Below, one piece after another: positions 55,250-56,590 of a stretch of DNA of 64,000 nucleotides. The position numbers and the translations under genes were made by a program. Position 1 is the stretch's first letter. Each line of letters opens with the position of its first letter. This DNA is from an uncultured Bacteroidales bacterium (GTDB taxonomy: Bacteria; Bacteroidota; Bacteroidia; Bacteroidales; VadinHA17). The notes below the pieces were generated by a model. That model did no database searches and was not told the DNA's origin. It saw only the letters and a list, made by a program, of their open reading frames with translations. Location of the stretch: the NCBI GenBank assembly GCA_963725785.1, contig CAVRZV010000016.1, positions 251,171 to 315,170 of the forward strand, read 5' to 3'.

Positions 55250-55549
55250 TCAGCAACAATTTGATTTTGAGTCAGAGCAGCCGCATATTGGTTCGGTGTT
55301 ATTCAGAATTCCGCTAATAATTCCCGCGGCACAACCTACGCCGGAGTTAACCGTTATTGCCTTTACCGGACAATTCAGGGCACACGCTCCGCATTCCATG
55401 CAATAATCTTTTCTAACAATATGAGCTTTTTTCCCTGAAAGTTCAAAAACGTCATGTGGACAAACTTTTACACACATTCCACACCCGTTGCAGGTATCTT
55501 CACACAGATTAAGTGTAACAACATCTGTGAGATAAATTAATTCTTTCAT
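55250..55549 (-). CDS. hgcB: mercury methylation ferredoxin HgcB
   Basis: 99 aa with two CX2CX2CX3CP motifs (CNGCGMCVKVCP, CMECGACALNCP), a conserved GVGCAAG and a C-terminal ...CGCSDSKSNCC. It lies 9 nt downstream of hgcA. Confidence 0.85.
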   Translation of the reverse strand: MKELIYLTDVVTLNLCEDTCNGCGMCVKVCPHDVFELSGKKAHIVRKDYCMECGACALNCPVKAITVNSGVGCAAGIISGILNNTEPICGCSDSKSNCC

Positions 55550-55558
55550 AATAATAAT

Positions 55559-56590
55559 TTAAATAAATCTCCCGACGACCTGTAAAATTAAACCAATAAT
55601 TGCGAATCCTATTTGAAGAGGTACTGATATCTTCATCTCTTTTTTGACTCCCGACAATGAAGTATATGTTGATGAGCCGGTAAAATTCATGGCCAGAAAG
55701 GAGGAAATCGAAGTAATAATCAGAAACCATGATAAAATTTCAATAATATTACTACCCGAAAATTTCAATAACAAGAGGACTATAAAAACAAGAACACCTG
55801 CATAAAGTCCCTTCAGAGAAAATCGTCTCGCCGGGAAATATGGAAGGAACAGAGGTGTAATTACAATTCCGGCAATATATGCTAGAAATACTCTCAAAAT
55901 GGCAGGTCCACCGGTCCCTGAAAAATCCCTGTATGAAATACCTTTGATGGATAGACCGGAAATCAAAAAGAGAACAGCCATTGCTCCCAGGAGGTAAAAT
56001 TTACCATACATAAAATCGTTGGGAATAAGCTTTATACGATCTTTAAAATTAAAAGTGACCTGCCTCATTACCTTGTCTGCCCTGTATCCTTTGCCAATAA
56101 ATTCTTTTATATCTGAAGCACGTACAGGGCCATATACAACATTAAAGCCTGTCTCATCCTTAATCTTATGGGCTGCGATTCCTGTGGCACCCAGCTGTGG
56201 CAATATCAGTCGTTTATGATTTACAATTTCACCCAGTGATACGAGTCCGATTCTGTTTACAAGTTCTTTTGTGCCAAAGGTACCCTTCCCGGCAGCACAC
56301 CATACATTTACTCCTTTAGTATCCAAAACCAGAATCCATCCATTCAATCCTGTGAGATTCTTTCGGAGAGTATCGAATGAAAGTTTGTAATTTGCCGTCA
56401 CAAAAACGTCTGATGTCTTATCGGGATTGCCAATTGCATAAAGCCCCGGGCTTACCTTGTAATTATCGCGGTTAATTCCCCAGCGTACCATAACAGCACC
56501 CATAAAATCATAAAAGCTGATTTCACCTGACACCTTAGGTATATCAGCCCCTGATGCCGCAACATTCCCAATTATAAATGAGTTTTTCAC
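55559..56590 (-). CDS. hgcA: mercury methylation corrinoid protein HgcA
   Basis: 343 aa. The cap-helix signature GVNVWCAAGKGTFGT has its Cys98 codon at 56297-56299. The flanks VTANYKLSFD and LPQLGATG are HgcA-like, and the C-terminal domain has about 4-5 TM helices. Confidence 0.9.
   Translation of the reverse strand: MKNSFIIGNVAASGADIPKVSGEISFYDFMGAVMVRWGINRDNYKVSPGLYAIGNPDKTSDVFVTANYKLSFDTLRKNLTGLNGWILVLDTKGVNVWCAAGKGTFGTKELVNRIGLVSLGEIVNHKRLILPQLGATGIAAHKIKDETGFNVVYGPVRASDIKEFIGKGYRADKVMRQVTFNFKDRIKLIPNDFMYGKFYLLGAMAVLFLISGLSIKGISYRDFSGTGGPAILRVFLAYIAGIVITPLFLPYFPARRFSLKGLYAGVLVFIVLLLLKFSGSNIIEILSWFLIITSISSFLAMNFTGSSTYTSLSGVKKEMKISVPLQIGFAIIGLILQVVGRFI

Follow-up and report, generated by a model that had tools for sequence, protein, structure and literature searches.

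We describe here an hgcA-hgcB gene pair, the genes of mercury (Hg) methylation, in a 64,000-nucleotide (nt) stretch of contig CAVRZV010000016.1 (assembly GCA_963725785.1, positions 251,171 to 315,170) from an uncultured Bacteroidales bacterium; the whole of this stretch is referred to below as the window. Both genes lie on the minus strand. The first, hgcA (55559..56590), starts with GTG and encodes a predicted corrinoid methyltransferase of 343 amino acids (aa), and the second, hgcB (55250..55549), encodes a 99-aa ferredoxin of the 2x[4Fe-4S] type, the hgcA stop and the hgcB ATG being separated by a gap of 9 nt (attattatt). HgcA matches the NCBIfam model NF040863 (HgcA_corrinoid) with 428.1 bits (E 2e-128), residues 17-342 covering profile positions 1-324 of 325, and HgcB matches NF040864 (HgcB_ferredoxin) with 120.1 bits (E 3e-35) over residues 6-99. 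These scores, which lie above the respective equivalog cut-offs of 275 and 99 bits, mean that the family matches are not due to chance.

The cap-helix motif NVWCAAGK occupies HgcA residues 95-102 (codons 56285..56308, minus strand, read directly from the DNA) and holds the one Cys of the whole protein, Cys98 (codon tgt at 56297..56299), which by analogy is the predicted Co-thiolate ligand; N95, V96, W97, C98, A99, G101 and K102 are invariant in an alignment of 57 sequences. The protein has its corrinoid-binding domain at the N-terminus (approximately residues 17-170), and five long helices form the C-terminal domain (residues 188-342). Within the former, Pfam detected only the generic CdhD domain (58.4 bits, residues 43-164), and a sequence search of PDB returned only corrinoid iron-sulfur protein (CFeSP) large subunits (residues 28-167, E 8e-12 to 3e-9). 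An AlphaFold model was built from 57 sequences, with a mean predicted local distance difference test (pLDDT) score of 66.5 and a predicted template modelling (pTM) score of 0.57; in it the N-terminal half alternates strands and helices, and the C-terminal helices span residues 188-211, 228-247, 257-274, 282-303 and 312-342. Hydropathy peaks over residues 192-343 match this C-terminal membrane domain. The model thus suggests five transmembrane helices in the C-terminal half, a count which is supported and yet not certain because pLDDT is moderate there (40-80). The top match in a Foldseek search of a PDB fold library was 9a0b_A (E 4.5e-21, template modelling (TM) score 0.57-0.59, 43% identity, 319 columns), a deposited computed model (2020) of the HgcAB complex of strain ND132 and the sole HgcA entry in that library; the next matches were the CFeSP entries 2ycl, 2h9a and 4djd, with 124-153 columns aligned.

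It should be noted that the GTG start of hgcA differs from the ATG used by relatives, and that a public HgcA entry of 100% identity (P0001) is only 314 aa long, its start having been placed at codon 30, an internal ATG. The stretch omitted by this call (56503..56590, minus strand), that is the 29 residues between the GTG and the internal ATG, is conserved in the 57-sequence alignment, with G8 and D28 invariant and P18 and F29 near-invariant, and a length of 343 aa agrees with all close relatives. The public call is therefore probably 29 residues too short, and the 343-aa reading is preferred because these first residues are conserved.

HgcB, which also matches multiple Fer4 families in Pfam, carries two CX2CX2CX3CP motifs, CNGCGMCVKVCP at residues 20-31 and CMECGACALNCP at residues 50-61, with the cluster Cys residues at positions 20, 23, 26, 30, 50, 53, 56 and 60. 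A further Cys, Cys73, lies within GVGCAAG (codon at 55331..55333, computed from the open reading frame (ORF)) some 12 residues past the second motif, where ND132 has its own conserved Cys73 (PMC7305189), the last two residues are the pair Cys98-Cys99 (codons 55253..55258, both features on the minus strand), and the tail has an extra Cys89 and Cys91. An earlier sequence-only reading of the window had described an intact and unbroken pair with NVWCAAGK around Cys98, a corrinoid-binding domain, a C-terminal transmembrane domain, and an HgcB 9 nt downstream with two ferredoxin motifs, the GVGCAAG Cys and the terminal CC. All of this was borne out: both ORFs are whole while dxs and other genes of the window are fragmented, both proteins exceed the cut-offs of the curated hidden Markov models (HMMs), the motifs are as described, the CdhD, CFeSP and Foldseek matches agree on a corrinoid domain, and the model helices and hydropathy argue for the predicted membrane domain.

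The prevalence of such pairs was addressed by searching for relatives of the window HgcA. A word-indexed protein search identified at least 8000 homologs at E <=1e-10, and 454 clusters (50% identity) matched at E <=1e-30 in a library of 1.84 billion representatives. The best 120 homologs are nearly all 342-345 aa long and 75-86% identical, and several of their records are already titled 'mercury methylation corrinoid protein HgcA [Bacteroidales bacterium]'. A scan of one genome per species gave 462 relatives, the best 80 of which, almost all from Bacteroidota or Ignavibacteriota, form the set of genome loci counted in this work; hgcB follows directly after hgcA in 80 of these 80 loci. The best 34 of the 462 come from Bacteroidales or Bacteroidia metagenome-assembled genomes (MAGs) with 62-80% identity, one of them labelled Bacteroidota only, and originate from the Stordalen Mire fen (fen_*), from SPRUCE peat and Microflora Danica soils and from comparable places. 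The hgcAB pair is carried by dozens of named Bacteroidales MAGs, and over the MAGs from peat, fen and soil HgcA is 62-86% and HgcB 73-90% identical to the window proteins. In a neighbor-joining tree of 84 sequences the window HgcA falls into a 36-member clade made up of Bacteroidales only (plus two unlabelled metagenome contigs), which is nested within a Bacteroidota/Ignavibacteriota group. This placement, which also speaks for the identification of a true, unfused pair, fits the monophyletic Bacteroidetes/Ignavibacteria HgcAB cluster of an earlier study (PMC7438021), in which the top hgcA transcript counts in the Stordalen fen belonged to Bacteroidetes of the vadinHA17 group. The sequence-only reading noted that Bacteroidota carriers are known mainly from metagenomic surveys and are rarely tested. 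The pair loses significance in that such carriers are abundant and already described (PMC7438021); the remark on testing agrees with a preprint by which the methylation phenotype was unconfirmed as of 2020 (10.1101/2020.04.01.018762). The window pair is an ordinary addition to a well-populated, published clade of putative Bacteroidales methylators.

The chromosomal site of the pair is also shared with relatives. The flanking proteins of the window are 83-97% identical to those of collinear Bacteroidales MAG loci, in keeping with the Bacteroidota context proposed from the letters alone. The upstream backbone consists of an S41 protease, a dCMP deaminase, a DUF2231 protein, rubrerythrin, a FISUMP protein and a 43-aa mini-lipoprotein, and the downstream backbone of a LysE-like protein, DUF190/crcB, an outer-membrane-like protein and an alpha/beta hydrolase. 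Among the neighbours named in the sequence-only reading, Pfam recovered CRCB, DUF190, LysE and Fib_succ_major, the 43-aa lipoprotein having no family match. The same backbone is present in 25 fully resolved Bacteroidales MAG loci, in which the interval between the mini-lipoprotein and the LysE-like gene is variable. In relatives this interval is occupied by a cassette (ORF lists of L001 and L008) of an ArsR/SmtB regulator, an arsC-like gene, hgcA, hgcB and ACR3. The cassette arsR matches NF033788 with 68.8 bits (cut-off 55) and the ACR3 arsenite exporter matches TIGR00832 with 439 bits (cut-off 283); the arsC product resembles arsenate reductases of the low-molecular-weight-phosphatase type (TIGR02691, 128 bits, below the equivalog cut-off of 174), and its stop lies 1-3 nt from the hgcA ATG in L001 and L008. 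In 68 of the 80 genome loci, hgcAB has at least one ars gene (arsR, arsC or acr3) no more than 6 kb away, and hgcAB regions flanked by acr3, arsC and ArsR-like genes have been described before (PMC7438021).

A census of the 25 loci with both backbone flanks present gave arsR-arsC-hgcAB-acr3 in 15, arsR-arsC-hgcAB in three, arsR-hgcAB in two, arsR-hgcAB-arsC-acr3 in two, a CDF transporter and a GDCCVxC protein before hgcAB in one (L031), and no hgcAB in two (L088 and L106). An arsR gene thus precedes hgcA in 22 of 25 same-site relatives, usually together with arsC and acr3. The closest HgcA relatives (84-86% identity) are themselves reduced forms, namely arsR-hgcAB (L081 and L082) and arsR-arsC-hgcAB (L083), and the window is the sole locus seen where hgcAB abuts backbone genes on both sides. 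Loci in which hgcAB is embedded among arsR, arsC, acr3 or arsM neighbours (PMC7438021; 10.1101/2022.10.17.512643) are typical of the lineage of the window, which compared with them stands at the fully reduced end of a series running from the full cassette through forms without acr3 and without arsC to the form without arsR. In L031 (3893..7339, a Bacteroidales MAG) the place of the ars genes directly upstream of hgcAB is taken by two other genes, one for a cation exporter of the CDF type (TIGR01297, 257 bits) and one for a Cys-rich GDCCVxC protein of 68 aa (NF041374, 107 bits). In L088 (2136..3497) there are a uracil-DNA-glycosylase-like ORF, a 49-aa remnant of arsR and an intact arsC directly before the LysE-like gene. 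The backbone site without hgcAB occurs in L088, L089, L090, L106 and L118, and hgcAB presence or absence is therefore polymorphic within the lineage.

Homologs of arsR, arsC and ACR3 were not found anywhere in the 64-kb window when searched by tblastn with L008 queries. Comparison by blastn with the closest backbone relative, L085, placed the breakpoints at window 56643 (L085 3604) and window 56589 (L085 4510): homology runs up to the base next to the lipoprotein stop and is found again one base into the hgcA start codon, which begins at 56590. From the mini-lipoprotein stop to the hgcA GTG there is a spacer of 53 nt (56591..56643, minus strand; the gap is also visible in alignment A1), which stands in place of approximately 905 nt of L085, which hold the putative ArsR operator, arsR and arsC, and of approximately 440 nt (operator and arsR) in L081 and L082. 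It has no significant match among 124 fetched loci, and the possibility that it is a remnant of arsR or arsC was rejected for want of significant similarity. On the other side of the pair, the spacer between hgcB and the LysE-like gene (55101..55249, minus strand, 149 nt) lies where most relatives have acr3, with or without further genes. The LysE-type translocator-like membrane protein itself (54261..55100, minus strand, 279 aa, Pfam LysE 51.5 bits) is part of the backbone flank and not of the cassette, its gene adjoining the variable site whether hgcAB is present or not. Nucleotide identity to L085 is 87.6% in the left flank, 85.1% over hgcA-hgcB-LysE and 87.3% in the right flank. This uniformity over the flanks and hgcAB indicates vertical descent with a deletion rather than a foreign cassette, and replacement of the cassette through recombination or horizontal gene transfer was rejected on the same ground. 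The absence of an ars context noted in the sequence-only reading thus holds for the window and does not hold for the lineage; it is a secondary deletion and not an independent arrangement, since the same site carries arsR with or without arsC and acr3 in 22 of the 25 relatives.

Between the lipoprotein gene and arsR, relatives have two copies, 28 nt apart, of a 14-nt palindrome, ACGTATAT(A/T)TACGT (alignment A1). The palindrome ACGTATWTWTACGT (also written ACGTATATATACGT) was found in 17 close loci, always immediately upstream of arsR, the tandem pair lying at L081 5583..5624, L082 5584..5625, L083 1977..2018 and in 14 more loci, and ACGTATATWTACGT is absent from the whole 64-kb window even when 2 mismatches are allowed. 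To judge from its position and symmetry, the tandem palindrome is a candidate ArsR operator, which would overlap the promoter of an arsR-(arsC)-hgcAB-(acr3) operon; a description of it was not found in the hgcAB literature cited here.

With the cassette genes gone, the gene directly upstream of hgcA in the window is that of the mini-lipoprotein (56644..56775, minus strand), a Cys-rich protein of 43 aa with the lipobox LTGC. Its mature peptide, CATQHKYKKFKPVPCPCEKENKR, has a CPC motif and the C-terminal end PCPCEKENKR, and matched no family in Pfam or NCBIfam; a metal-binding role would be speculation. Mini-lipoproteins of 53-88% identity are encoded immediately before the ars/hgc cassette in relatives, and only where the backbone is of the window type. 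A role as a dedicated partner of hgcAB was considered and rejected, since Bacteroidales loci that hold hgcAB elsewhere in the genome lack this gene nearby. The -7 box of Bacteroidetes has the consensus TAnnTTTG. A pattern scan identified one relaxed match, TATATTTC (56853..56860, minus strand), a candidate promoter element approximately 85 nt before the mini-lipoprotein ATG, and the column block of TATATTTC is conserved in alignment A1; a sigma-70 promoter scan is not informative for Bacteroidota. No terminator-like hairpin was found between the mini-lipoprotein gene and hgcA, nor between hgcB and the LysE-like gene. As the only -7 match lies upstream of the lipoprotein gene and no such hairpin precedes hgcA, the most economical hypothesis for the transcription of hgcAB is read-through from a mini-lipoprotein promoter.

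The two genes are under purifying selection. In a comparison over 84 sequences, 85 columns of HgcA and 30 of HgcB are at least 95% conserved, and the window proteins depart from none of them (median of the other sequences 1 for HgcA and 0 for HgcB). The pairwise ratio of nonsynonymous to synonymous substitution rates (dN/dS) between the window and its closest relatives is 0.13-0.16, which lies within the 0.10-0.18 found among arsR-carrying relatives themselves, although such pairwise values do not isolate the period after the deletion.

The chemistry that we infer for the window pair is modelled on that of Pseudodesulfovibrio mercurii (Desulfovibrio desulfuricans) ND132, in which hgcA and hgcB are likewise two adjacent genes and HgcA has the cap-helix N(V/I)WCAAGK (with Cys93 there for Cys98 here) and a corrinoid domain followed by five transmembrane helices, as in our model. 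ND132 HgcB has its cluster A and B Cys and Cys73 at the same residue numbers as the window HgcB, and a C-terminal Cys pair is present in both (PMC7305189); the tail of the window protein differs in its two extra Cys (89 and 91). Mutagenesis showed the need for HgcA Cys93, for HgcB Cys73 together with at least one Cys at the HgcB C-terminus, and for the transmembrane domain (PMC7305189), and each of these elements has a counterpart in the window. For the ND132 complex, and as far as known for no other, the two [4Fe-4S] clusters of HgcB and the cobalamin of HgcA were shown spectroscopically, and S-adenosylmethionine was identified as the methyl donor that gives methyl-Co(III), with Co-thiolate ligation by the conserved Cys, before the methyl group passes to Hg(II) (PMC11588087). 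By analogy with ND132, the two clusters of the window HgcB would reduce the corrinoid that HgcA binds in its N-terminal domain to Co(I), methyl-Co(III) would form by methylation from S-adenosylmethionine, Cys98 serving as the lower thiolate ligand, and the methyl group would be transferred to Hg(II) presented by HgcB Cys98/Cys99 and Cys73, while the five-helix domain of HgcA would anchor the complex in the membrane. ND132 differs in regulation, an ArsR-like regulator being co-transcribed upstream there and missing from the window copy. A clean deletion took the putative tandem palindromic operator, arsR and arsC from upstream of hgcA, with acr3 absent downstream, and left hgcAB bare between the mini-lipoprotein and LysE-like genes, without ArsR control encoded in cis and most likely transcribed by read-through.

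Other features of the window lie further from the pair. The dxs gene is split into three plus-strand ORFs, with DXP_synthase_N at 29923..30819, Transket_pyr at 31010..31333 and Transketolase_C at 31188..31892, within what the sequence-only reading called a frameshift-dense block; the split reflects either indel errors of the assembly or real pseudogenisation. A gene for a sigma factor of the ECF type (25664..26026, Sigma70_r2) is followed by approximately 2.5 kb (26196..28660) with only short ORFs of up to 85 aa, and the anti-sigma and TonB-receptor pair expected there is probably present as fragmented genes. The crcB-DUF190 pair (53453..54239, plus strand) is absent from L085, where the LysE-like gene is directly followed by the outer-membrane-like gene, and no fluoride riboswitch was detected upstream of crcB in the window, even at E <=1.

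We read the locus as a genuine, intact and unfused hgcA-hgcB pair, a vertically inherited Bacteroidales HgcAB with Hg methylation assigned by homology, from which the ArsR and ars genes have been deleted, and we would put the probability of this reading at about 0.85. Several points weigh against it. Confidence in the HgcA model is moderate (mean pLDDT 66.5) and falls below 50 in the cap-helix region, the protein is only approximately 43% identical to the verified HgcA of ND132, and the tree placement is one among HgcA sequences of Bacteroidales and of Bacteroidota/Ignavibacteriota. No strain of Bacteroidales or Bacteroidota had a confirmed Hg methylation phenotype as of 2020, the isolate Paludibacter jiangxiensis included (10.1101/2020.04.01.018762). 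Sequence quality is imperfect, with frameshifted genes elsewhere in the assembly such as dxs, and ars genes may be present elsewhere in the genome, beyond the 64 kb. The promoter and operator of the relatives are gone, the hgcA start codon is GTG, and the pattern scan found no canonical TAnnTTTG upstream of hgcA, its sole relaxed match TATATTTC lying upstream of the mini-lipoprotein; for these three reasons the expression of hgcAB is unproven.

That the pair might be a non-methylating paralog, whether of the fused HgcAB-like kind or a Wood-Ljungdahl corrinoid protein of the CFeSP/CdhD type, is what one could gather from Pfam, which detects the CdhD domain only, and from the PDB sequence matches, which are CFeSP large subunits. 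The fused proteins (NF043039) have both the corrinoid and the ferredoxin module in common with the window, but the window genes are two separate ORFs with a stop codon and the 9-nt gap between them, and they score 195.5 bits (HgcA) and 54.1 bits (HgcB) against a cut-off of 285; to our knowledge, none of the fused forms tested so far methylates Hg. The CFeSP large subunit (AcsC/CdhE; 2h9a, 2ycl, 4djd, 4c1n) has a corrinoid alpha/beta domain homologous to HgcA residues 28-167 or so, but the match extends over only about 125-150 residues compared with 319 columns for the ND132 HgcA model, and the CFeSP gamma score is 75.8 bits against a cut-off of 306, compared with 428 against 275 for HgcA. Unlike the window HgcA, CFeSP has no transmembrane domain and no counterpart of the cap-helix Cys ligand (PMC7305189). 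On account of the equivalog HMM scores and the best fold match being the ND132 HgcAB model, both kinds of paralog, which the sequence-only reading had itself raised as alternatives, were rejected, and we regard a paralog as virtually out of the question. An assembly artefact, in the form of a join that is collapsed or chimeric in a long-read MAG prone to errors, might be suspected from the frameshift-like breaks in essential genes such as dxs and from the public HgcA call shortened to 314 aa. However, fragmentation elsewhere has no effect on hgcAB, and indel errors cannot remove approximately 900 nt with breakpoints that coincide exactly with the end of the mini-lipoprotein gene and the beginning of hgcA; the flanks are moreover collinear with L085 at uniform identity, and the intermediates arsR-arsC-hgcAB (without acr3) and arsR-hgcAB occur in independent assemblies from other projects. 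An artefact is accordingly very improbable.

A bare pair could also be an orphaned, silent cassette, left untranscribed when arsR and the promoter/operator were deleted, and thus a recent relic on its way to loss. The deletion of operator, promoter region and arsR, the GTG where relatives use ATG, the want of a canonical -7 box upstream, and the complete loss of hgcAB at the same site in L088 and L106, with a degraded arsR in L088, all point in that direction. Against this there are no deviations at 115 highly conserved columns, a dN/dS (0.13-0.16) that is not above that of arsR-positive relatives, even if a pairwise value cannot isolate the time since the deletion, two ORFs that are unbroken while other window genes are fragmented, and a same-strand gene only 53 nt upstream with no terminator-like hairpin between; we consider a silent relic unlikely. 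A larger share of doubt attaches to the function for which a true HgcAB is maintained, which might be a corrinoid-dependent reaction in arsenic handling or one that reductively dehalogenates halomethanes, Hg methylation then being a side reaction. In most relatives hgcAB appears to be part of an arsR-arsC-hgcA-hgcB-acr3 operon, in which 1-3 nt lie between the arsC stop and hgcA, and in ND132 hgcAB is under ArsR-like control responsive to arsenic and S-adenosylhomocysteine, the knockout being more sensitive to As(V) (10.1101/2022.10.17.512643). An unreviewed preprint of 2026 (10.64898/2026.04.26.720869) reports dechlorination of CCl4 by heterologously expressed HgcAB and proposes halomethane dehalogenation. 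Yet the window and L031 keep hgcAB without any ars gene in cis, under purifying selection, and ars genes without hgcAB also occur at the same site; as each occurs there without the other, the hgcAB and ars modules are separable in this lineage. Such another role is rather doubtful on present evidence, and Hg methylation activity would be compatible with it.

Identification of the genes alone carries little weight, as it adds one more putative methylator to an abundant clade that is reported to be transcriptionally dominant in thawing-permafrost fens. The locus is noteworthy only for having cleanly lost its ArsR regulator together with the operator and the ars genes that nearly all same-site relatives have, which is a minor regulatory variant. 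Its modest added value lies in the context, with modules of arsR, arsC, hgcAB and acr3 found in every combination at one site and the window as the hgcAB-only extreme. It is possible, and we put this forward tentatively, that hgcAB without ArsR, operator or ars neighbours and still under purifying selection represents a natural minimal locus, expressed by read-through independently of arsenic and S-adenosylhomocysteine. If so, HgcAB would have a selectable function of its own that does not depend on an ars operon linked in cis, and the sister configurations at the same site, with ars genes without hgcAB or with hgcAB next to the CDF transporter and the GDCCVxC protein, would form a comparative series on the purpose of HgcAB. 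The locus bears on how hgcAB is regulated outside Desulfovibrionaceae and on a possible tie between its selected function and the detoxification of arsenic, and it shows that a prediction of methylmercury formation from gene presence alone overlooks regulatory differences among near-identical populations.

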